Shown: positions 20,972 to 30,167 of the stretch, in pieces | Position numbering within the stretch: position 1 is the first letter of the stretch | Layout of the letters: each line of letters starts with the position of its first letter | Origin: a virus | Direction: 5' to 3' (one strand) | DNA length: 64,000 bases | Virus record (IMG/VR): IMGVR_UViG_3300029286_000013 | Made by a program: the position numbers and the translations under genes | The notes under the pieces: model-generated | Told to the model about the DNA's origin: nothing | Seen by the model: only the letters and a program-made list of their open reading frames with translations | The model's database searches: none

Positions 20972-21045
20972 TGGCATCCCCCCAAGGATTCGAACCTTGA
21001 CTAACGGTTTTGGAGACCGGTATGCTGCCATTACATTAGGGAGAC
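20972..21045 (-). tRNA. tRNA-Trp(CCA)
   Basis: Cloverleaf, loop CTCCAAA, 3' CCA. Confidence 0.92.
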
Positions 21046-21049
21046 ATTT

Positions 21050-21642
21050 TTACTTACTGATGAAGGGAGTTTTAGGTAGAATAGTTGATAGCCAATAATT
21101 ATATATTTCAGTATTTAAAGGTGTGTCTATAAATTCCTGTAATTTAGTTATTAGCCTACCTTCTAGTATATCCTTTAAAGGTATAACTTTAGAGTTATTA
21201 TACGTTTTTGCCAAGTTGATTCTTTTATTTCTGCGAATAAGTTCTTCTTCATTTAGTGGTGGATGATATTTTGGAAGAATTGTATAACATCTATTCATTC
21301 CCCATTTATTATATTCATCATCAGTATCATCTATAACAATTGTTTGTAGGTTTAACATGTTAGCGTGATAGCGTAAAAATGATATGTCATGGCTTGTTGA
21401 AATAGATAGATATTTTTGTTCTAATTCTTCTAGAAATAAGGTTTTAGTATTACCATCAAAAAATAAATCTCTACTATCATTACAATTTTTATTATGTTTT
21501 ATTAAACTAAGTCTTAATCGTTCTCTTAAAGAACCTAGGGTAGGATGAACATCTATTTCTGACGTTTCATAATCAGTAGAATCTATAACAGCACTAACCA
21601 TATCGCCACCGGCGCCTGAATTGTATAAAATAAAAAAAACAT
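21050..21642 (-). pseudogene. Sulfotransferase-like protein with N-terminal frameshift in a T8 tract
   Basis: ATG at 21642 then T8; the YNSGAGGD motif is in frame only with 6 or 9 T. Confidence 0.55.
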
Positions 21643-21667
21643 AAATTATTTATACAAACAAAAACTA

Positions 21668-21886
21668 TTAAGATTTTCTAATGTGTTTCAGATAATCTCG
21701 TCCAACCAATCCTGCTTCAATTTCTTGTAGCGCAGTTACAATTGGACCTGCTTTTGTGTTAAGTGTGGAACGATGTCCACGCTTTAATTCTCTTACACGT
21801 TGTGAAGCGATTAGAACTAAATCAAATCTATTACCAACCATATTAACGGCATCTTCACTTGTGTATCTTGCTCTGCTTTCAGTCAT
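21668..21886 (-). CDS. rpoZ: RNA polymerase omega subunit
   Basis: ARYTSEDAVNMVGNRFDLVLIASQRVREL...ALQEI. Confidence 0.88.
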   Translation of the reverse strand: MTESRARYTSEDAVNMVGNRFDLVLIASQRVRELKRGHRSTLNTKAGPIVTALQEIEAGLVGRDYLKHIRKS

Positions 21887-21911
21887 ATTTTCTTTCGTTG
21901 TTGTAAAACTT

Positions 21912-21987
21912 TGGAGCGGCTAATCGGGTTCGAACCGATGACATTCACGTTGGCAACGTGATGCTCTACCAACTGAGCTACAGCCGC
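21912..21987 (-). tRNA. tRNA-Gly(GCC)
   Basis: Cloverleaf, loop TTGCCAA, CCA. Confidence 0.95.
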
Positions 21988-21996
21988 AATACTCTT

Positions 21997-22389
21997 TCAA
22001 TAAAGAGGCAAACCTTGCGCGGCTCTGCCTCTACCTTTATTTGCGCCTCTCAGAAACTCTGTTTGGCTATGACAATTAGGACAAATTAGTCGTAAATTAT
22101 CAGGGTGATCGTTTGAAGGATCGCCGTTTATATGGTCCACATGAAGCACTAGTTTTTTTTTATTCCAATCACTAATCCCACATATTTCGCAGTTATAACC
22201 TCTTGCCTCAGCAAGATAATTCCTTACGGTAGGTCTATCAATTCTTTTTTCTAATAAACCGGAAAAGAATTTTCTCTTATGTTCTTTGGATCTCTGTTTG
22301 GTTGAACATGACACACTACAATATTTGTTAGTGCCTTGGTGAGAAATTTTGCACTCTTTTTCACAGTATCCGCATTTGTAAGTTTTCAT
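21997..22389 (-). CDS. HNH endonuclease (free-standing)
   Basis: CEIC...LHVDHINGD...NLRLICPNCH. Confidence 0.9.
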   Translation of the reverse strand: MKTYKCGYCEKECKISHQGTNKYCSVSCSTKQRSKEHKRKFFSGLLEKRIDRPTVRNYLAEARGYNCEICGISDWNKKKLVLHVDHINGDPSNDHPDNLRLICPNCHSQTEFLRGANKGRGRAAQGLPLY

Positions 22390-22430
22390 GGTAAAGTACT
22401 CCTATGCAGTATTTATGCCTTACCTAAGTT

Positions 22431-22453
22431 TTTGACCATTAAGCTAATCCCGC
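22431..22453 (-). pseudogene. 5' fragment of a tRNA (Gly-like)
   Basis: GCGGGAT-TA-GCTTAATGGTCAAA: acceptor 5' strand and D-arm only, then HNH promoter. Confidence 0.5.
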
Positions 22454-22457
22454 AATT

Positions 22458-22533
22458 TGGTGGGTCGTGACAGGCTCGAACTGCCGACATTCTGCGTGTA
22501 AGGCAGACGCTCTACCAACTGAGCTAACGACCC
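22458..22533 (-). tRNA. tRNA-Val(TAC)
   Basis: Loop CTTACAC, CCA. Confidence 0.95.
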
Positions 22534-22541
22534 GAATATTT

Positions 22542-22727
22542 TTAACCACCTTGGTTACTATCTTTAACTTCTGTATCAAACTCAATATTAGATGATTCAA
22601 TACGACTAGTTCCTGGTGGAGGTTGTCTATCATCATCTACTTGAGGTTTTCTAAAAATATTATCCCAATTATTGTCAAACGTTTTTAAATTAACGCTATA
22701 CGGTCTTGGAGTACTACCTTTGCTCAC
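22542..22727 (-). CDS. Small hypothetical protein
   Basis: MSKGSTPRP...WDNIF; SD AGGAG. Confidence 0.65.
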   Translation of the reverse strand: MSKGSTPRPYSVNLKTFDNNWDNIFRKPQVDDDRQPPPGTSRIESSNIEFDTEVKDSNQGG

Positions 22728-22891
22728 TTCTTGTCTCCTCGACTCCCGGATGAACGTGAGTTGCTTTTTTCAATCTCAACAAAACTGCGAATAAAATCAC
22801 CACGTTTATGTGCATCACGTATAAGTGTTGCCGCACGTTTAACTGCTTGGGGGAGTTTAACTGCCCTTGAATCATAACCTCTACATGTCAT
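22724..22891 (-). CDS. Small basic hypothetical protein
   Basis: MTCRGYDSRAVKL...; SD GAGG; longer track ORF overlaps tRNA-Pro. Confidence 0.6.
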   Translation of the reverse strand: MTCRGYDSRAVKLPQAVKRAATLIRDAHKRGDFIRSFVEIEKSNSRSSGSRGDKK

Positions 22892-22914
22892 ACTGTTTCC
22901 TCTTTTAAAAACTT

Positions 22915-22991
22915 TGGTCGGAGTACAAGGATTCGAACCTTGGACCCCCTGGTCCCAAACCAGGTGCGCTACCAGACTGCGCCACACTCCG
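22915..22991 (-). tRNA. tRNA-Pro(TGG)
   Basis: Loop TTTGGGA, CCA. Confidence 0.95.
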
Positions 22992-22995
22992 TAAC

Positions 22996-23074
22996 TGGTT
23001 GCGGGGGAAGGATTCGCACCTCCGATCTCCAGCTTATGAGACTGGCGGGGACGACTAGACTCCCCTACCCCGCG
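22996..23074 (-). tRNA. tRNA-fMet(CAT), atypical
   Basis: C1:A72 mismatch, CGCGGGG start, loop CTCATAA, T-loop TGCGAAT. Confidence 0.85.
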
Positions 23075-23102
23075 ATATCTTGGTGCCCGCGATATCTTGG
23101 TG
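23069..23102. repeat. 17-bp perfect tandem duplication
   Basis: cccgcgatatcttggtg x2. Confidence 0.9.
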
Positions 23103-23173
23103 GAGGAGACAGGGATCGAACCTGCGACCTATTGCTTGCAAAGCAACCGCTCTCCCAACTGAGCTACACCCCC
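23098..23173 (-). tRNA. tRNA-Ala(TGC)
   Basis: G3:U70, loop TTTGCAA, CCA. Confidence 0.95.
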
Positions 23174-23253
23174 ATATTGAAACATACTAACTACCTTGGT
23201 ATGTACTAAAGTTCAATGAACCGCTACTACCCTATCTTTAATATGCTTCAATA
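23174..23253 (-). ncRNA. Stem-closed spacer RNA A
   Basis: 17-bp stem ATATTGAAGCATATTAA/TTAGTATGTTTCAATAT filling the Leu-Ala spacer. Confidence 0.5.
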
Positions 23254-23338
23254 TGGTGCCCCAGGCGAGACTCGAACTCGCACACCTTTCGGCACTGGCT
23301 TCTAAGACCAGCGTGTCTACCAATTTCACCACCAGGGC
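23254..23338 (-). tRNA. tRNA-Leu(TAG)
   Basis: Loop CTTAGAA, long variable arm, CCA. Confidence 0.95.
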
Positions 23339-23346
23339 ATTTAACT

Positions 23347-23375
23347 ATTATAACAGAGAACTATTTATCTGTCTA
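23347..23375 (-). promoter_or_regulatory. Internal sigma70 promoter
   Basis: TAGACA-N17-TATAAT. Confidence 0.75.
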
Positions 23376-23390
23376 TTATTTTGGTTAACT

Positions 23391-23464
23391 TGGAGCGGGG
23401 TAACAGAATCGAACTGTCAGCATTAGCTTGGAAGGCTAAGGTATTACCACTATACGAACCCCGC
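23391..23464 (-). tRNA. tRNA-Gly(TCC)
   Basis: Loop CTTCCAA, CCA. Confidence 0.95.
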
Positions 23465-23472
23465 ATAAATTC

Positions 23473-23549
23473 TGGAGTAGGTGACAGGGATCGAACCTGC
23501 ATAAAACGGATTTGCAATCCGCGGCCTGACCATTCAGCGACACACCTAC
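23473..23549 (-). tRNA. tRNA-Cys(GCA)
   Basis: Loop TTGCAAA, U73, CCA; slightly long connector. Confidence 0.88.
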
Positions 23550-23551
23550 AT

Positions 23552-23750
23552 ATTGCTCTGCATCCCCCGGCGGTAATTATAGTACAGAAAGATATGACGC
23601 TATCATACCCCTCACTCGTACCTTCCACCCGCTTCCCGACAGGGACCGTTCTCGCATTGCTAGCGGCCTTTGGGTTTAAAGACTACCACCCGTACATGTC
23701 ACTGTACTTCTCATCGTGCGGGTCACACTATCCGAAGACACTCGGAACGT
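23552..23750 (-). ncRNA. Candidate ~200-nt structured RNA between tRNA-Ser and tRNA-Cys
   Basis: GC-rich, multiple helices, no credible ORF. Confidence 0.6.
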
Positions 23751-23752
23751 TC

Positions 23753-23840
23753 TGGTGGAGAGTGTGGGATTCGAACCCACGCACCCATTACTGGATGACA
23801 GATTAGCAATCTGTTGGTTTAACCACTCACCCAACTCTCC
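23753..23840 (-). tRNA. tRNA-Ser(GCT)
   Basis: Loop TTGCTAA, long variable arm, CCA. Confidence 0.95.
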
Positions 23841-23846
23841 TATGCT

Positions 23847-23923
23847 TGGTGCCTCCACCTGGACTCGAACCAGGAACCAATGGATTATGAGTCCACTGCG
23901 CTAACCAATTGCGCTATAGAGGC
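23847..23923 (-). tRNA. tRNA-Ile2(CAT) (lysidine type; elongator Met less likely)
   Basis: GACTCATAATC anticodon arm with TTGGT variable loop like bacterial Ile2. Confidence 0.8.
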
Positions 23924-23932
23924 ATCATTCTT

Positions 23933-24017
23933 TGGTGCGAGTGCCCGGAATCGAACCGGGATGCTGTTAAGCGAGAGATTTTAAGTCTCTTGTGTCTACC
24001 TATTTCACCACACTCGC
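23933..24017 (-). tRNA. tRNA-Leu(TAA)
   Basis: Loop CTTAAAA, CCA. Confidence 0.95.
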
Positions 24018-24030
24018 AAATCTTGTTATC

Positions 24031-24059
24031 ATTATATATTAATCAATGATTGTAGTCAA
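24031..24059 (-). promoter_or_regulatory. Internal sigma70 promoter
   Basis: TTGACT-N17-TATAAT. Confidence 0.75.
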
Positions 24060-24065
24060 ATAATA

Positions 24066-24142
24066 TGGCGCACCGTAGGGGACTCGAACCCCTGACCCCC
24101 GCCGTGACAGGGCGGTGCGCTAACCAACTGCGCTAACGGTGC
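24066..24142 (-). tRNA. tRNA-Asp(GTC)
   Basis: Loop CTGTCAC, CCA. Confidence 0.95.
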
Positions 24143-24206
24143 TTGAATATGTGCTGGGTAGGTGCTCCGGCGCCGATCGTCTTGATATTATCTCACGGCC
24201 CTTGTT

Positions 24207-24291
24207 TGGTGGAGATTACTGGGATCGAACCAGTCGTGCTATAAAGCGGCGGATTTACAGTCCACTGCATCACCATTGATGCTTCATCTCC
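24207..24291 (-). tRNA. tRNA-Tyr(GTA)
   Basis: Loop CTGTAAA, long variable arm, CCA. Confidence 0.95.
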
Positions 24292-24295
24292 TGAT

Positions 24296-24371
24296 TGGAG
24301 CTCGGTACGGGATTCGAACCCGTGTGAATGCCGTGAAAGGGCACTATCCTAGGCCACTAGATGAACCGAGC
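24296..24371 (-). tRNA. tRNA-Glu(TTC)
   Basis: Loop CTTTCAC, CCA. Confidence 0.93.
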
Positions 24372-24375
24372 ATTA

Positions 24376-24503
24376 TGTTATTAGTTTTGCTGACGCACTA
24401 TTTGCTATGTCTCAACGGAATCGGTGGCCACACTACCGTTTATCGGCATAGTTACGTAGGGTTGACGTTTACCCAAGGGCTTACATCAGCAAAACTAATA
24501 ACA
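24376..24503 (-). ncRNA. Stem-closed structured RNA D
   Basis: Perfect 18-bp terminal stem TGTTATTAGTTTTGCTGA/TCAGCAAAACTAATAACA plus internal helices. Confidence 0.55.
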
Positions 24504-24504
24504 C

Positions 24505-24713
24505 ACTATATGAAAACACATTATGGGAACTACACTTCTAATATAAGACCGTCTCTTATATTTTCAGTTTTGTCATTACTTCCTAACTTCCCGTCACGTT
24601 CAGAACTTTCGTTCTCATACGCTTCATATACTTAGATTGAGCGTGGGCGGCCCCACTGTCCTCGTCTTAAGTACCTAACGGATCAGGTAACCCTTAATAT
24701 GTTTACATATAGT
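24505..24713 (-). ncRNA. Stem-closed structured RNA C
   Basis: 19-nt arms ACTATATGTAAACATATTA/TAATGTGTTTTCATATAGT; internal hairpins such as AATATAAGA-GACGG-TCTTATATT and AGAAC-GAAA-GTTCT. Confidence 0.55.
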
Positions 24714-24750
24714 TCCTGTAACTTAAACAGGGCTATATGATAACTTAACT

Positions 24751-24762
24751 TTTTTAAAGAAC
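24751..24762 (-). promoter_or_regulatory. boxA-like antitermination element
   Basis: GTTCTTTAAAAA about 40 nt after tandem promoters; rrn boxA is GCTCTTTAACA. Confidence 0.6.
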
Positions 24763-24802
24763 TTTGTTGATTAGTACGATGACTTTCTCAACTCATGCTA
24801 TG

Positions 24803-24911
24803 ATTGTATCATAACTACCATTTATTGTCAAATTCTGTTGTTTCGCTGTTTCCAAGAACTTCTTCAATCAATCTATACATAGAGTATAGCACTATTTGGA
24901 TTTATTGTCAA
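24803..24911 (-). promoter_or_regulatory. Tandem sigma70 promoters
   Basis: TTGACA-N17-TATACT (24883-24911) and TTGACA-N17-TACAAT (24803-24831). Confidence 0.85.
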
Positions 24912-24940
24912 ACTATTAGTTGTTGTAAATAAACAACATT

Positions 24941-25015
24941 TGGTCCGGCGTAGAGGAATCGAACCTCTATTGATTGCTTAGAAGGCAATTGTATTATCCA
25001 TTATACTAACGCCAG
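24941..25015 (-). tRNA. tRNA-Arg(TCT)
   Basis: Loop CTTCTAA, CCA. Confidence 0.93.
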
Positions 25016-25036
25016 ATAAATTTTCAACTTGCCTCT

Positions 25037-25065
25037 ATTGTAGTAGAACTTTGATTTATTGTCAA
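25037..25065 (-). promoter_or_regulatory. Internal sigma70 promoter
   Basis: TTGACA ATAAATCAAAGTTCTAC TACAAT. Confidence 0.75.
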
Positions 25066-25676
25066 GTTTTGTTGATAACATCTTGCCATCGTAAAACAGA
25101 ATCTTTATCATAATTTTGATAACGACCTTTCCTTCTATTTACAATAGCAGGAAGGTATTGTAAATTGTCTTGATGATGCGGACCACCTTCACTAATTGCT
25201 ATAATATGGTCTACTTCATACCCTGTGGGACAATTTTCGTAAATGGTTTGTATTAGTTTACGATTAACATCTATAGGAGTGGAGCTATATTTTCGTTGTC
25301 TATATGCTTGAACAGAAGACACCCTTTTTGCTCTACTTTCTGCTTCAGTGTATATTTTTTTAATTTTCTGTATCTTTTGTGGCTTTTCTTTTTTCTTTCG
25401 TTTTACATATACTTTATTATTATATGTGGCAGAACATGATTGGCTACAAAAAGTTTTTCTTTCACTAGTAGGATGAAATATTTTATTACATTGTTTGCAT
25501 CCAATTAATGTTTTTTGATATTGTTCTAAATTTTGATAAGGCATTACTTTACGAGTTATCAAACAGGAACACACTATTTTTTTAGATTTACCAGTCGACT
25601 GGCCATGCATTCGTTTATGTCCGGTTAAGGCCATAATACTAGCAAACGACTTACTACATTCTATACATTTATACAT
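25062..25676 (-). CDS. HNH endonuclease with N-terminal C2H2 zinc finger
   Basis: CIECSKSF...HKRMH; EVDHIIAISEGGPHHQDNLQ. Confidence 0.88.
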   Translation of the reverse strand: MYKCIECSKSFASIMALTGHKRMHGQSTGKSKKIVCSCLITRKVMPYQNLEQYQKTLIGCKQCNKIFHPTSERKTFCSQSCSATYNNKVYVKRKKKEKPQKIQKIKKIYTEAESRAKRVSSVQAYRQRKYSSTPIDVNRKLIQTIYENCPTGYEVDHIIAISEGGPHHQDNLQYLPAIVNRRKGRYQNYDKDSVLRWQDVINKT

Positions 25677-25691
25677 ATAGTTATTTATGAT

Positions 25692-25772
25692 TGGCTCCAC
25701 GGCTAGGACTCGAACCTAGCTTGCTTTCGCACAGATTAACAGTCTGCTGCCACACCCGGCGGCTCCCGTGGA
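25692..25772 (-). tRNA. tRNA-Asn(GTT), atypical
   Basis: Loop CTGTTAA, G73, CCA; G8; 11-nt variable region with GC-GAAA-GC hairpin. Confidence 0.85.
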
Positions 25773-25779
25773 ATAGTTT

Positions 25780-25855
<76 letters not shown>

Positions 25856-25880
25856 GTTGTTTATTTAATAGTATTATACA

Positions 25881-26441
25881 CTAACTCAATAATATTCTAC
25901 TATGTTTTGGAACACCTGCAAGCAAGTATTCCATTTGGTCTGCAAGAATTGTTCTATGTTGTAATATCATATTCTCGTAGTGGTTAGGGACGTAAGGTGC
26001 ATATAGTAATTCCATCTTTGACTCTTTTAGTGTCTTATGGCCTTTACGACTATTACAATCTTTGCAAGCTGTAACAACGTTCATCCAAATGTTTTCGCCA
26101 CCTTTACTCTTTGGATGAATATGGTCACGACTTAACATATGATAGTTAGGAAAGTGTTCTCCACAGTAAGCACATACATACCTATCACGACCAAACAATG
26201 TTTTATTAGTTAGTGCGACACATGAGTGTTTGTATGGATTGAATCCGTGACCTTTGATAGCGATAATGCTATTAGTTTCTAAGTAACTTAATGTGCCGTC
26301 TTTTTGTATGCCACCACGATATTTAGCCACAATTTCACCCATACTCCATGCGATGGCATCTTTTGCTTTATAGGTAATTGCGTCATCATTTGAAATCCAC
26401 TGCCGGGGAACACCTGAGATATCTAGTGCTAGAACAGCCAT
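25881..26441 (-). CDS. HNH endonuclease (McrA/HNH_5-like)
   Basis: RDRYVCAYCG...DHIHPKSKGG...WMNVVTACKDCNSRKG; SD AAGGAG. Confidence 0.9.
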   Translation of the reverse strand: MAVLALDISGVPRQWISNDDAITYKAKDAIAWSMGEIVAKYRGGIQKDGTLSYLETNSIIAIKGHGFNPYKHSCVALTNKTLFGRDRYVCAYCGEHFPNYHMLSRDHIHPKSKGGENIWMNVVTACKDCNSRKGHKTLKESKMELLYAPYVPNHYENMILQHRTILADQMEYLLAGVPKHSRILLS

Positions 26442-26489
26442 GTCGTACTCCTTTTCTGCTATTGTCACTAATTGTATTTAATACTGTGT

Positions 26490-26564
26490 TGGCGGGTCCT
26501 GCAGGAATCGAACCCACATCTCCAAGTTCGAAGCATGGCATTCTATCCATTGAACTAAGGACCC
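26490..26564 (-). tRNA. tRNA-Arg(TCG)
   Basis: Loop CTTCGAA, one U-U mismatch in anticodon stem, CCA. Confidence 0.88.
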
Positions 26565-26571
26565 TTAATTG

Positions 26572-26600
26572 ATTATACACTAATTGTGTATTTTTGTCAA
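26572..26600 (-). promoter_or_regulatory. Internal sigma70 promoter
   Basis: TTGACA-N17-TATAAT. Confidence 0.85.
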
Positions 26601-26604
26601 GACA

Positions 26605-26631
26605 AAAGAAAACGGTGAACCAGTCACCGTT
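26605..26631 (-). terminator. Intrinsic terminator
   Basis: AACGGTGA-CTGGT-TCACCGTT then TTCTTTT. Confidence 0.7.
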
Positions 26632-26655
26632 TAGTATTGTAGATGTATAATACAT

Positions 26656-26925
26656 TTATACATTATCACTTATGAGATAATCAGTAATTATTACGTTATA
26701 CAACTCTGCTTCCCCTGCTACAAATTGTACCCATTCGTCAGCCGCATCTTGATCCAACCAAACTCGCTTAACGTGATTTTCGTCAACAAATGCAACAAAA
26801 CCATCTGTTTTCCCAGCTATTTCCATTTGTCCTGCTTTGGTGTTTAGCGCATTTGAAAACTCTGCTGGAACTGTATCTACAGTAGATTGATAAGTAAATA
26901 TTGTTTGTTTTGTGTAAGTAGTCAT
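26656..26925 (-). CDS. Small acidic protein (possible distant Dabb-like family member)
   Basis: SD AGGAG; RVWLDQDAADEW. Confidence 0.7.
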   Translation of the reverse strand: MTTYTKQTIFTYQSTVDTVPAEFSNALNTKAGQMEIAGKTDGFVAFVDENHVKRVWLDQDAADEWVQFVAGEAELYNVIITDYLISDNV

Positions 26926-26963
26926 AAAGTTTCTCCTACATGTATTTATCATTAAATACAAAT

Positions 26964-27431
26964 ATGACTAATTTTGAATATATTGTTGATTTTTTACCAA
27001 TTCTGCCTAAAGAAATAGTTACTGAAATTATTTTATCTACAAAAAAACCAAATTTATGGGGCGGACATCGTGCAGATGTTTACCAATTATTTGAATGTAC
27101 ACAAAAACTGTATGATTTTATTGATTTACATTTAAGTGAAAAATATGTAGTCAAGGTACAATTAATAAAGAACACACTACCCATACACGTAGATATAGGA
27201 AGGTCATTTGTTTTCAATTATATAATTGAAACCGGTGGGGATAATGTACATACTATCCTCTATTCAAAAAACAATGATGATTATACTGTAATTGAATCAC
27301 ACTGCATAGAACCATTTAAATGGCATAGATTAAACGTTTCTACTCCACATAGTGTCAGCACAATATTACCACATAATCAACGAGTAAGCTTAAGCATTTT
27401 TTTATGTGAAGCTGATAACCCTTTTAAGTAG
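26964..27431 (+). CDS. 2OG-Fe(II)/cupin-like oxygenase
   Basis: PIHVD...FNYIIETGG...WHRLNVSTPHSV...RVSLS. Confidence 0.7.
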   Translation: MTNFEYIVDFLPILPKEIVTEIILSTKKPNLWGGHRADVYQLFECTQKLYDFIDLHLSEKYVVKVQLIKNTLPIHVDIGRSFVFNYIIETGGDNVHTILYSKNNDDYTVIESHCIEPFKWHRLNVSTPHSVSTILPHNQRVSLSIFLCEADNPFK

Positions 27432-27434
27432 GCA

Positions 27435-27510
27435 TGGTGCCAACGAATGGAATCGAACCATTGACGCACAGATTTTCAGTCTGTCGCTCTACCAACTGAG
27501 CTACATCGGC
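27435..27510 (-). tRNA. tRNA-Phe(GAA)
   Basis: Loop CTGAAAA, CCA. Confidence 0.95.
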
Positions 27511-27519
27511 TTATAAAGG

Positions 27520-27667
27520 TGGGAGCCTAACTATCTTAGTGTTAATAAGCCTCGTTAGATTGTCTCGTATAGGCAAGTTTATACACCCATTAATCATACT
27601 ATAGTGTCATCACAGTTAACCCCACTGTGACTAGATTGACAGGGACTCGAACCTATCGTCTATCCCA
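27520..27667 (-). ncRNA. Candidate tRNA-mimic RNA with an isolated T-arm
   Basis: TGGGA/TCCCA ends; GATAGG-TTCGAGT-CCCTGTC; TCACAGT/ACTGTGA hairpin. Confidence 0.5.
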
Positions 27668-27671
27668 TAAC

Positions 27672-27749
27672 TGGCACCCCCTCAAGGATTCGAACCTCAG
27701 AATGTCGGAATCAAAATCCGATGCCTTAGACCAACTTGGCGAAGGGGGT
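27672..27749 (-). tRNA. tRNA-Gln(TTG)
   Basis: Loop TTTTGAT, CCA. Confidence 0.93.
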
Positions 27750-27758
27750 ATTTTATCT

Positions 27759-27848
27759 TTAATAAAGAGACTCCTTGTACACATTACATAAATGTGTCCA
27801 AGCTTCAATTTCTTGTTTATGTTTTTCTACTGATTGATTCCAACTCAT
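27759..27848 (-). CDS. Micropeptide, 29 aa (not in ORF track)
   Basis: SD TAAGGAG; MSWNQSVEKHKQEIEAWTHLCNVYKESLY. Confidence 0.5.
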   Translation of the reverse strand: MSWNQSVEKHKQEIEAWTHLCNVYKESLY

Positions 27849-27866
27849 TGCTGTCTCCTTAAAATT

Positions 27867-27943
27867 TGGTAGCCTCACTGTGACTCGAACACAGGACCCC
27901 CGCCTTATCAAGACGGTGCTCTAACCAACTGAGCTATGAGGCT
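27867..27943 (-). tRNA. tRNA-Ile(GAT)
   Basis: Loop TTGATAA, CCA. Confidence 0.95.
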
Positions 27944-27950
27944 GAATGTT

Positions 27951-28025
27951 TGGTGGATGTAAGTAGATTTGAACTACTGACCTATTCCGTATGAAGGAAT
28001 TGCACTACCGCTGTGCTATACATCC
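27951..28025 (-). tRNA. tRNA-Met(CAT), elongator
   Basis: Loop TTCATAC, G1:C72, CCA. Confidence 0.88.
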
Positions 28026-28026
28026 A

Positions 28027-28103
28027 TGGGGTGCTTGATGGGATTCGAACCCACGAATATCGGAATCACAATCCGAGGTCTTAACCGCTTGACGACAAGC
28101 ACC
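28027..28103 (-). tRNA. tRNA-His(GTG)
   Basis: G-1:C73, loop TTGTGAT, CCA. Confidence 0.95.
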
Positions 28104-28575
28104 GTGTGATAGAAACAGTCATTGCAAATCTTACAAATTCTATGTTTGAAACGCCATGCGGCACTGTTACATCTAGCATATGCCAGACATTTGGTCGAAT
28201 GTGTACTGATTCTATAGGTTTATAATCTTTATTATAAACTTCTAATCGTCCGTCACTAATCCTAATAAAATCATTTATATCATAAAATGAGGTAAGAACA
28301 TTTGGTCCGCCTGTGTCAAATATATAATTATAAGCACGGGTTCTATTAAAATCAGTATGAATAGGAACGGTATCACTAAATGAGTGAACCTCTACTTTAT
28401 CAAAATACAAAAACGATTCAATAAAATTTTTCAGTTTCTCCGTTGCATTAAACAACTGATAAGGATGATTTGGTAACTTAAAAATATTTGGATAATTATC
28501 TCTGCTATAACAGGCTTCTTTAAGAAAAGTTTCATCCAATTTTGGTAAGTCTTCTAAATAGGTAATATAACTCAT
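28081..28575 (-). CDS. 2OG-Fe(II)/cupin-like oxygenase; stop codon lies inside tRNA-His
   Basis: PIHTD...YNYIFDTGG...WHMLDVTVPHGV...RFAMT. Confidence 0.7.
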   Translation of the reverse strand: MSYITYLEDLPKLDETFLKEACYSRDNYPNIFKLPNHPYQLFNATEKLKNFIESFLYFDKVEVHSFSDTVPIHTDFNRTRAYNYIFDTGGPNVLTSFYDINDFIRISDGRLEVYNKDYKPIESVHIRPNVWHMLDVTVPHGVSNIEFVRFAMTVSITRCLSSSG

Positions 28576-28610
28576 GACTTATTTATTCAATGGACTAACT
28601 TAAAAAATGT

Positions 28611-28700
28611 TGGTAGAAACGGTGAGATTCGAACTCACGGAGGACGTTAGCCCTCGACGGTTTTCAAGACCGTTGCCTTAAACCACTCGGCCACGTTTCC
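28611..28700 (-). tRNA. tRNA-Ser(TGA)
   Basis: Loop CTTGAAA, long variable arm, CCA. Confidence 0.95.
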
Positions 28701-28702
28701 TC

Positions 28703-29350
28703 TTAAAAATTCCAATTTGGGTCTAATGATAAAATTTTATCATCCCATTCACTTTTGTAAAAATCAAGAACTTTAGTTTGTAGTTCATTTTTACACCATT
28801 CTAAATTGGTAATGTAATGGTATTTTAAGTGAGATTGCTGATCCATATGATTTTTTAATTCTGTTTTAACATCAAAATGACTATTAGGTAATGTTTCATA
28901 AGTGATTATTTTTCCATAATATGGAAAATATTTTAAGTGTAGTAATACATTCATTTTTGAACGATGTATATCATTATCTGTTGCTGTAAAGTCGTTTTTC
29001 TGTTTGTTCTCATAGAGAGAAGTATAACCATGTTGTTTTGCTAAAACATCAGATAGTAACATGTTTAATCGATCTTTACGTTCTATTACAAATATTTCGT
29101 GACTACGTAAATTTAGTACTTCATTATACCATTTGTTTCCTGGTTTATAAAACTCCATATTAGATCCGTGTATCTTTGTACAAGTATCAATTGAATTCAT
29201 TTTTTCTACTAATAAGTCCCATGAGCTATTATCAAATTCGTTAGATAATTTTCTCATAAAAGGTTCATTCAATTTTTCATAAGTGTTGCAACGATAAAGA
29301 CCAGCAGTGCCTCGTGATCTGGGCATAGTGTAAAGTAATATAGGTTTCAT
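28703..29350 (-). CDS. Sulfotransferase-like protein
   Basis: MPRSRGT (5'-PSB-like), NEPF, KIH, ERKD...S, ITYE. Confidence 0.6.
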   Translation of the reverse strand: MKPILLYTMPRSRGTAGLYRCNTYEKLNEPFMRKLSNEFDNSSWDLLVEKMNSIDTCTKIHGSNMEFYKPGNKWYNEVLNLRSHEIFVIERKDRLNMLLSDVLAKQHGYTSLYENKQKNDFTATDNDIHRSKMNVLLHLKYFPYYGKIITYETLPNSHFDVKTELKNHMDQQSHLKYHYITNLEWCKNELQTKVLDFYKSEWDDKILSLDPNWNF

Positions 29351-29418
29351 AACAATATATTTATACTGGTGGAAATCAACCTAATCATAATAGGTATTCT
29401 ATACTGTTCAAATATGAA

Positions 29419-29604
29419 TTATGCTTTTTTATCTATCTGATGGTTATGATGCGTTGATTCTAAATCACCATCTTTGTTATAAAGATACTGCACAACTTCA
29501 ATAAGTTGTTTATTAGTTGCCGGATCTTTTACGATAGTGTAAACCGTAGTGCGATATTGATGATTAATCATATCATTTATGGGTGTTGCACTTTGAACTA
29601 TCAT
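29419..29604 (-). CDS. Small hypothetical protein
   Basis: 61 aa; TATAAATA 4 nt before ATG. Confidence 0.6.
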   Translation of the reverse strand: MIVQSATPINDMINHQYRTTVYTIVKDPATNKQLIEVVQYLYNKDGDLESTHHNHQIDKKA

Positions 29605-29617
29605 ATAGTATTTATAT

Positions 29618-29693
29618 TGGTGGGACCAGGGCGGTTCGAACGCCCGACCAATGGATTAAAAGTCCACTGCTCTACCGACTGAGCTATGGTCCC
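29618..29693 (-). tRNA. tRNA-Lys(TTT)
   Basis: Loop CTTTTAA, CCA. Confidence 0.95.
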
Positions 29694-29699
29694 GTATTC

Positions 29700-29776
29700 T
29701 GGTGCGACCGGAGAGATTCGAACTCCCGACTCCCAAGTTCGTAGCCTGGTACTCTATCCAACTGAGTTACGGTCGC
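29700..29776 (-). tRNA. tRNA-Arg(ACG)
   Basis: Loop CTACGAA, CCA. Confidence 0.95.
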
Positions 29777-29861
29777 ATTCTAAAACACACCTAGTACTCC
29801 CGAGTCGTGTGGGTCTAGCGTTTTCAGCTAATATTGTTTTCCACTATGTATGTTTTAGAAT
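29777..29861 (-). ncRNA. Stem-closed spacer RNA B
   Basis: Arms ATTCTAAAACATACATAGT/ACTAGGTGTGTTTTAGAAT. Confidence 0.5.
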
Positions 29862-29862
29862 G

Positions 29863-30000
29863 CCGTGTATTGCTACACGACACGATAGGGTTAATACCCT
29901 ACCCAGTGATTTTAATTTCTATGTTATCGCCATAGATTTCATCCTACTGTCCGCCCATTTGATACATTTTGCGCTGTATTACGGCTCTCGTTGCCTGTTC
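29863..30000 (-). ncRNA. Candidate multi-hairpin RNA in the tRNA-array leader
   Basis: GGC/GCC, ATACA/TGTAT, CAGT/ACTG enclosing CTATG/CATAG, TAGGG/CCCTA, CGTGT/ACACG. Confidence 0.45.
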
Positions 30001-30010
30001 ACGTTGCTTA

Positions 30011-30157
30011 TCATTTTACCTTGTACAGTATATGATAAACCTTCGCACGTTGTAACTTGTTAGCTATCAACTGTGCTAGTTGCTCCTTTGTCAGAACATG
30101 ATTGCTAAACCAATCTTGCTTTGCTTCAGAAGTTTTGTATTCTATCTCTTTATCCAT
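30011..30157 (-). CDS. Possible 48-aa ORF directly after the attenuator
   Basis: MDKEIEYKTSEAKQDWFSNHVLTKEQLAQLIANKLQRAKVYHILYKVK; ATG lies within a promoter spacer. Confidence 0.35.
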   Translation of the reverse strand: MDKEIEYKTSEAKQDWFSNHVLTKEQLAQLIANKLQRAKVYHILYKVK

Positions 30158-30167
30158 TTATTGTCAA
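30139..30167 (-). promoter_or_regulatory. sigma70 promoter downstream of the attenuator
   Basis: TTGACA ATAAATGGATAAAGAGA TAGAAT. Confidence 0.75.

Follow-up and report, generated by a model that had tools for sequence, protein, structure and literature searches.

Phage tRNA clusters can contain RNAs other than tRNAs, as in T4, where two small non-tRNA RNAs, species 1 and 2 (rnaC and rnaD), are located directly beside tRNAs, are co-transcribed with them and are freed by RNA processing. In vitro, RNase III cleaves species 1, and we know of no function for either RNA. The boundaries created by tRNA processing also free non-tRNA RNA in the case of the E. coli 3'ETS-leuZ and of the tRNA-pre-miRNA units of murine gammaherpesvirus 68, the latter depending on eukaryotic enzymes. 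In YrlA and Y RNAs (Ro60/Rsr), the paired 5' and 3' ends form a conserved helix that bears a variable, sometimes tRNA-like, module at its tip. Helices located in a polycistronic stable or early RNA and directing a staggered cut are found in the rRNA stalks and in T7 R1.1 and uR1.1 (Pertzev and Nicholson 2006, PMC1540722). Here, we analyzed a 64,000-nucleotide stretch of viral DNA (IMG/VR record IMGVR_UViG_3300029286_000013, hereafter the window), which belongs to an A+T-rich phage and contains 27 tRNA genes, all on the minus strand (20972-29776). An earlier note, made from the sequence of the window, had described four inverted repeats in this tRNA array as RNA cassettes closed by long stems, namely the elements that we call A, B and D and a fourth one, called C' below (Table 1). 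A, B and D are members of a family of RNA modules that is found only in phages and sits in their tRNA operons, and we lean towards the view that their common stem is a processing adaptor for the host RNase III, usually carrying an optional and swappable small RNA.

Like T4 species 1 and 2, these modules lie in a phage tRNA cluster, but no kinship in sequence or structure was found: R1, a covariance model of the family stem, scored no higher than 11.7 bits in the T4 region, with no match on rnaC or rnaD, both of which are without the family closing stem, rnaC ending in a T-arm-like hairpin. Release at tRNA-processing boundaries, as in 3'ETS-leuZ and the herpesvirus units, is also what we propose here; neither of these, to our knowledge, has a shared adaptor stem or belongs to a family with interchangeable interiors. 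The architecture of YrlA and Y RNAs is recognizable as well, but the helix sequence of the family is different and some of its copies consist of the stem only. The likeness to T7 R1.1 and uR1.1 and to the rRNA stalks concerns a helix in a polycistronic RNA, the staggered cut being a prediction in our case.

Elements A, B and D in the tRNA array

The four inverted repeats of the earlier note are all present in the window. A, B and D are closed by helices of 19-23 bp with the common core 5' AARYAYAY / 3' GURUGUUU, whereas the stem of C' has a different sequence. The arms of A (23172-23190/23238-23256) are 19 nt long, 89% complementary and 47 nt apart, those of D (29775-29795/29843-29863) 21 nt long, 90% complementary and 47 nt apart, and those of B (24505-24527/24691-24713) 23 nt long, 87% complementary and 163 nt apart. 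Element A adjoins without a gap the 3' end of tRNA-Leu(tag) at 23254 and the 5' end of tRNA-Ala at 23173, and its helix reaches into both tRNAs (23172-23256), the CCA of tRNA-Leu pairing with a U and with the first two G of tRNA-Ala. Likewise, D adjoins without a gap the 5' end of tRNA-Arg(acg) at 29776, with a helix spanning 29775-29863. The exact abutment on tRNA ends that had been claimed for A and B is therefore real for A, and for D too, but not for B, which touches no tRNA and has its 3' end one base from C'.

The window has three occurrences of the strict shared motif with its pairing complete, each of them on the minus strand and inside the tRNA array, and the chance expectation for the unpaired motif pair at a spacing of 30-60 nt is 0.09 per window. 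Folding z-scores of the four elements range from -4.4 to -5.6 on the minus (tRNA) strand and are better than on the opposite strand; the folding energies of the two strands are -25.6 vs -12.5 kcal/mol for A and -23.5 vs -19.3 kcal/mol for D. None of the four elements is an intrinsic terminator, their stems being A+U-rich with no U run after them, and none matches Rfam 15, either at the gathering threshold or with E up to 5.

Conservation and covariation of the stem

Relatives of the phage were collected from IMG/VR, first through a neighboring protein and then through an exact arm of C'. A syntenic tRNA array was found in about 25 contigs, two of which are rated complete (348.7 kb and 524.6 kb). 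A near-identity search of GenBank phages returned tRNA-sized matches only and no close relative of the window phage, and one large protein of the window had no match among GenBank phages.

Alignment A1, made of 18 distinct short copies from the window and its relatives, contains a 19-pair helix in which 95.9% of the cells are paired and 12 of the 19 pairs change on both sides, a result reached by none of 500 shuffles. When the 3' partner was slid by 1-3 columns, pairing fell to 32-55%. In a larger set of 36 distinct copies from the same sources, B-type copies included, the 9-bp core formed by positions 10-18 is near-constant (5' strand AARYAYAYU, 3' strand AGURUGUUU), whereas the outer helix (positions 2-8) and the inner helix (position 19 onward) covary, with mismatches clustered at position 9. 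The tRNA strand of these copies has 40 G.U pairs against 10 A.C mismatches, so that the selected structure is the RNA of that strand. Invariance is greater in the 3' strand than in the pairs as such, the G at 17' being kept opposite either U or C. The core starts 5 nt beyond the CCA upstream of it, its end lies 6 nt short of position 1 of the following tRNA, and the whole stems measure 17-22 bp, with energies of -20 to -43 kcal/mol.

Run on the window with filters off, R1 detected A and D only, with 75 and 58.7 bits in the sense orientation vs 36.9 and 32.8 bits in antisense; B is left unscored owing to its 170-nt insert but follows the same frame as the family, position by position. In the relatives, R1 members are confined to tRNA arrays, and none was found in about 90 unrelated viral loci. 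In the whole 348.7-kb and 524.6-kb records, all matches fall within the spans of the tRNA-array loci. Family calls relied solely on the strict motif and on the covariance model. A tolerant motif scan (one mismatch per arm, 7/8 pairs) was uninformative, with 13 matches per strand vs 16 in shuffles, and a 14-base arm scan of viral contigs, which gave mostly chance matches among the matches listed, was screened with R1. Seventeen loci without tRNA from the first scan (L003, L006 and others) were chance matches in unrelated contigs, mostly of coding appearance, and were used as negatives.

Breadth of the family and exchange of interiors

For the commonest arm version, the search pattern consisted of two 13-base arms, matched exactly and separated by 30-60 nt. 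At least 120 viral contigs contain this version, and the matches listed, to which all of its copy counts refer, comprise 135 copies (99 distinct). Their interiors are of about 62 unrelated kinds when grouped by shared 9-mers, gapped global identity having merged them all. A start on the CCA of a tRNA is observed in 106 of the 135 copies (79%), with ten tRNA species represented, and a tRNA follows within 3 nt downstream in 53 of them, the other 82 having no tRNA directly downstream. Among 185,579 prokaryotes (one genome per species), this arm pair was encountered once, on a 1.5-kb contig with nine tRNAs that was binned with a Candidatus Planktophila genome and looks like phage DNA. A keyword search of the literature found no description of the cassette family.

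Interiors differ widely at a given site. Between the leader RNA (Table 1) and tRNA-Arg(acg), the D arms are kept in 12 relatives; over the 11 of these that were scored, the mean identity is 0.83-0.84 for the arms, 0.86 for the leader, 0.84 for the tRNA and 0.37 for the interior, which is of at least eight types, each keeping its hairpins by compensatory changes. The relative left out of the scores, L010, has an intact D stem and a tRNA-Arg(acg) truncated past the anticodon arm, beyond which other sequence extends for about 1 kb (L010:878-960). The Leu(tag)-Ala spacer holds A in the window and two other members of the family in other phages, and the orthologues of A (8 loci, 87-92% identity, whole hairpin conserved) are located instead after a 200-nt RNA of the array. 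One interior is 95% identical at two different array positions (L005, L009). Entire cassettes are clearly mobile or swapped from one site, and one phage, to another. Some interiors are nonetheless conserved: that of A has 30 nt identical between relatives, and that of B has 11 covarying pairs across 13 relatives and three GACGG loops. At the site of B, L019 has the same stem with a small insert only, 70 nt in all, and copies reduced to the stem were found in 21 contigs, with a loop of 3-5 nt right after position 18-19, in one case of the GNRA type. Since such stem-only copies exist, the stem works alone and the interior is optional.

These data refine what had been said of the inserts. Their description as unrelated is right for A, B and D, whose interiors do not match one another, but the A interior is itself conserved among relatives. 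The idea of a modular, variable cargo is upheld only as far as a shared stem closes variable interiors on the tRNA strand; the cargo itself, however, can be dispensed with.

T-arm-like hairpins were noticed in several interiors, one with the canonical T-arm sequence (L069:980-1073) and two with a shared variant (L005:8941-9021 and L037:6851-6920), which hints that some interiors may derive from tRNA genes. In B (24505-24713) and its relatives, the GACGG motif is repeated three times, two of the occurrences being in apical loops on covarying stems, and this repetition would suit a motif bound by a protein as well as one that makes tertiary contacts. No antisense target came out when all interiors were compared, by short-word BLAST, with the window and the other loci collected.

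Resemblance of the stem to RNase III substrates

For RNase III of E. coli, the minimal substrate has 11 bp of helix between the scissile bond and a tetraloop, its proximal box having G-C at position 1, A-U or U-A at position 2, A-U at position 3 and A-U or U-A at position 4, where G-C blocks catalysis (PMC1540722). The middle box comprises the pairs U12:G27 and C13:G26, and the distal box a U-G and then a U-A pair beside the loop, every substitution in the distal box costing at least about 5-fold; in T7 R1.1, a U-C pair lies next to the cut (PMC1540722). For comparison, position 4 of the proximal box was set on family position 9, and the counts over the 99 distinct copies of the commonest arm version were taken at positions left unconstrained by the search pattern.

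In this register, the conserved block covers the same span as the box set and the helix has the same 11-bp length as the minimal substrate; the whole stems, at 17-22 bp, also compare with a total of about 20 bp for such a substrate. Position 2 of the proximal box is A-U in 36 of the 36 copies and position 3 in 35 (family positions 11 and 10), whereas position 4 is A-U in 19, mismatched in 12 and G-C in 5, window A among the latter; family position 9, next to the predicted cut, is thus often mismatched. Among the 99 copies, position 15 is C-G in 75, position 16 A-U in 97, position 17 U.G in 65 and position 18 U-A in 95, and pairing then drops, position 19 being paired in 86% and the following ones in 53%, 48% and 31%. 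For the distal box, the 36-copy set has U.G (16) or C-G (15) at position 17 and U-A (28) at position 18. In the window, A has U-G and U-A, B has U-A and U-A, and D has C-G followed by an A.G mismatch.

The likeness to uR1.1 extends to the 11-bp helix from cut to tip, the A-U pairs at positions 2-3 of the proximal box and the weak or mismatched pair next to the cut. The commonest family type shares with uR1.1, unchanged, a block of four pairs (5' strand CAUU, 3' strand AGUG) in which the U-G/U-A distal box lies. At every position that the paper states, the full uR1.1 sequence compared here agrees with it. The family differs from uR1.1 at position 1 of the proximal box and at two pairs above it, many of its copies, D included, have C-G in place of U-G in the distal box, its tip usually bears a folded insert of 25-170 nt, and its helix starts on the CCA of a tRNA.

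The cleavage, the enzyme, the stability of the products and the function of the interiors that we infer from the sequence would fit together as follows. The module would be a hairpin whose lower 19 bp act as a constant adaptor and whose tip is a short loop or, more often, a small folded RNA. The nine conserved pairs would provide the proximal, middle and distal boxes of RNase III, and a staggered cut would fall about 4 nt after the CCA of the preceding tRNA and about 3 nt before the next tRNA. This cut would part the neighboring RNAs, leaving stubs to be removed by RNase P and 3' exonucleases, and would set the tip free as an RNA capped by the stem, about 73 nt long for A, 77 nt for D and 195 nt for B. 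In five phage records, of which two are rated complete, a search for an RNase III gene was negative, so that an enzyme of the host is implied.

Several observations weigh against this proposal. Position 1 of the proximal box is A-U, and not the preferred G-C, in 32 of the 36 copies, and the C-G pair at position 17 concerns 15 of them. The window copies are less canonical than the commonest type: A has at position 9 the G-C pair that is a catalytic antideterminant in E. coli, and D departs from the distal box at both of its positions, with its C-G at 17 and A.G at 18. In several relatives, Leu(tag) and Ala are only 4-10 nt apart without any hairpin, and since such hairpin-free spacers occur, the hairpins are not needed to separate adjacent tRNAs. 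Furthermore, the box rules are those of E. coli and may not apply to the host of this phage, and the conserved sequence in the helix could equally be the site of another protein. The shared RNase III-like or protein-binding stem of the earlier note may be retained for A, B and D, whose conserved block resembles an RNase III site, but not for C', which is outside the family.

Alternative explanations

A protein other than RNase III might recognize the stem. The latter would then be a docking site, in a particle resembling that of Y RNA and Ro60, with the variable interior as its working or adaptor part, and release would be due only to RNase P and the tRNA 3'-end enzymes acting at the flanking tRNA ends. 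The paired 5' and 3' ends, the sequence-conserved helix and the variable module recall Y RNAs, T-arm-like hairpins occur in some interiors, and the 3' strand varies less than its pairs, with G at 17' opposite U or C. On the other hand, the Rfam models of YrlA and Y RNA match none of the elements, the stem-only copies have no module to present, and no candidate partner protein was found: no TROVE/Ro60 or RtcB gene is present in the five phage records, two of them rated complete, though a partner could be encoded by the host. We regard this explanation as unlikely, while giving it more weight than the next ones. Even less probable in our opinion is that the hairpins are passive punctuation, which would block 3' exonucleases, insulate the folding of tRNAs or protect ends, with no cleavage and no role for the interior. 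Long and stable stems (-20 to -43 kcal/mol), the many copies that follow the last tRNA of a run, the 82 of 135 copies with no tRNA directly downstream and the hypervariable interiors (0.37 for that of D, against 0.84 for its arms) are all compatible with it. It leaves unexplained, however, why a 9-bp block stays constant, wobbles included, in many phages and over about 62 interior types while the rest covaries, and why the register with the tRNA ends is fixed; it also does not account for interiors that are conserved (30 nt of A) or that keep their hairpins by compensatory changes.

The inverted repeats could also act as DNA, as the termini of a mobile element or as recombination sites for cassette shuffling, the RNA structure being incidental. 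Cassettes do sit at differing array positions (A follows the 200-nt RNA in 8 relatives and lies between Leu and Ala here), the same interior is found at 95% identity at two positions (L005, L009), three different members occupy the Leu-Ala spacer, and homing endonuclease genes are present in the array. Yet the copies within a genome share their arms only, unlike transposon-derived repeats, and all are oriented like the tRNAs; the wobbles (40, against 10 A.C) belong to the tRNA strand, and the opposite strand would have mismatches in their place; and the boundaries coincide with RNA ends (CCA, tRNA position 1) and not with target-site duplications. This makes an action at the DNA level very improbable. 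A miniature inverted-repeat transposable element was specifically considered and rejected, as the 99 distinct copies have about 62 unrelated interiors and only their arms in common.

Possible significance

More tentatively than the assignment to RNase III itself, the stem might be seen as a plug-in adaptor of universal use: whatever small RNA its tip carries would be transcribed from the strong tRNA promoters, cut out by the host and protected by the stem, and lake phages would in this way exchange a large and fast-turning repertoire of small RNAs, for instance decoys or regulators directed against host defenses or host RNA metabolism. If true, this would be the RNA-level counterpart of integron cassettes. 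A portable processing adaptor would also explain how many non-tRNA RNAs are packed into the tRNA operons of large phages. The one arm version alone is associated with about 62 interiors, with no Rfam match in the cases checked, and a single 19-bp helix starting on a CCA end offers a handle to find more of them in metagenomes, as well as a compact natural part with which bacteria could be made to express defined small RNAs. New phage-host RNA functions might be sought in conserved interiors such as that of A and the 170-nt B core, where the three GACGG loops are found. What is new here are the position-by-position statistics at unconstrained positions, the stem-only copies and the near-absence of the stem from cellular genomes.

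Other RNAs and genes of the array

The coordinates of the cassettes and of the features around them are given in Table 1.

Table 1. Cassettes, predicted cleavage sites, neighboring RNAs and promoters in the window (R1, covariance model of the family stem).
Feature	Position	Strand	Remarks
Cassette A	23174..23253	-	80 nt, between tRNA-Leu(tag) and tRNA-Ala; R1 75 bits
Cassette B	24505..24713	-	Family-type closing stem around a conserved multi-hairpin RNA of ~170 nt
Cassette D	29777..29861	-	85 nt, between leader RNA and first tRNA, Arg(acg); R1 58.7 bits
Predicted RNase III cuts in A	23250/23249 and 23177/23176	-	Putative
Predicted RNase III cuts in B	24706/24705 and 24511/24510	-	Putative
Predicted RNase III cuts in D	29857/29856 and 29780/29779	-	Putative
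Separate RNA C'	24376..24503	-	128 nt, three inner hairpins, ends 4 nt before tRNA-Glu
Structured leader RNA	29862..30010	-	~150 nt, directly 5' of D, downstream of promoter 30139-30167
tRNA-Leu(tag)	23254..23338	-	3' CCA forms the first three pairs of the A helix
tRNA-Ala(tgc)	23098..23173	-	First two G pair into the base of the A helix
tRNA-Arg(acg)	29700..29776	-	First two bases (GC) pair into the base of the D helix
Near-consensus sigma-70-type promoter	23347..23375	-	Before tRNA-Leu(tag) and A; 11/12 matches
Two tandem near-consensus promoters	24803..24911	-	Before B
Near-consensus promoter	30139..30167	-	Before leader RNA and D

Several near-consensus promoters of the sigma-70 type lie in the array in the same direction as the tRNAs, and B is the first RNA downstream of the tandem pair. 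Element C' was tried as a member of the family and rejected, its stem being of different sequence and without R1 match. Its arms (24376-24393/24486-24503) are 18 nt long and perfectly complementary, and its 22-bp closing stem is invariant in 15 relatives, save for changes to or from G.U, with a covarying apical hairpin; inspection by eye revealed no box set of the E. coli RNase III type in it. The leader RNA upstream of D is conserved over 11 relatives (0.86 identity), its hairpins being kept through compensatory changes. Two further non-tRNA RNAs on the minus strand, about 200 nt (23550-23752) and 160 nt (27511-27671), adjoin exactly the Ser and Cys and the Gln and Phe tRNAs, respectively, and are found in many relatives with 71-98% and 83-96% identity; neither has a match in Rfam.

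Among the tRNA genes of the array are open reading frames (ORFs) resembling homing endonucleases, and two ORFs of HNH/endonuclease VII type were noticed between tRNA genes at 25062-25700 and 25881-26468 (minus strand). The ORFs that interrupt the array vary among relatives, and one of those of the window (28703-29350) had no relative in IMG/VR. The segment 24210-24291 (minus strand) is a tRNA according to the Rfam model (36 bits) that was missed by ARAGORN, and the relatives carry a tRNA-Tyr(gta) between Glu and Asp at the matching place. The 524.6-kb record (G001, IMGVR_UViG_3300027749_002876) contains the tRNA array twice, in differing versions located around 118-126 kb and around 417-425 kb, which may reflect either two related genomes joined together or a true duplication. 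Finally, the 117-nt spacer between tRNA-Ile and tRNA-Gln (27750-27866, minus strand) contains a 29-codon ORF behind an AAGGAG ribosome-binding site; as its copy in L001 differs by two synonymous changes only, it suggests a real micro-protein gene inside the tRNA operon.

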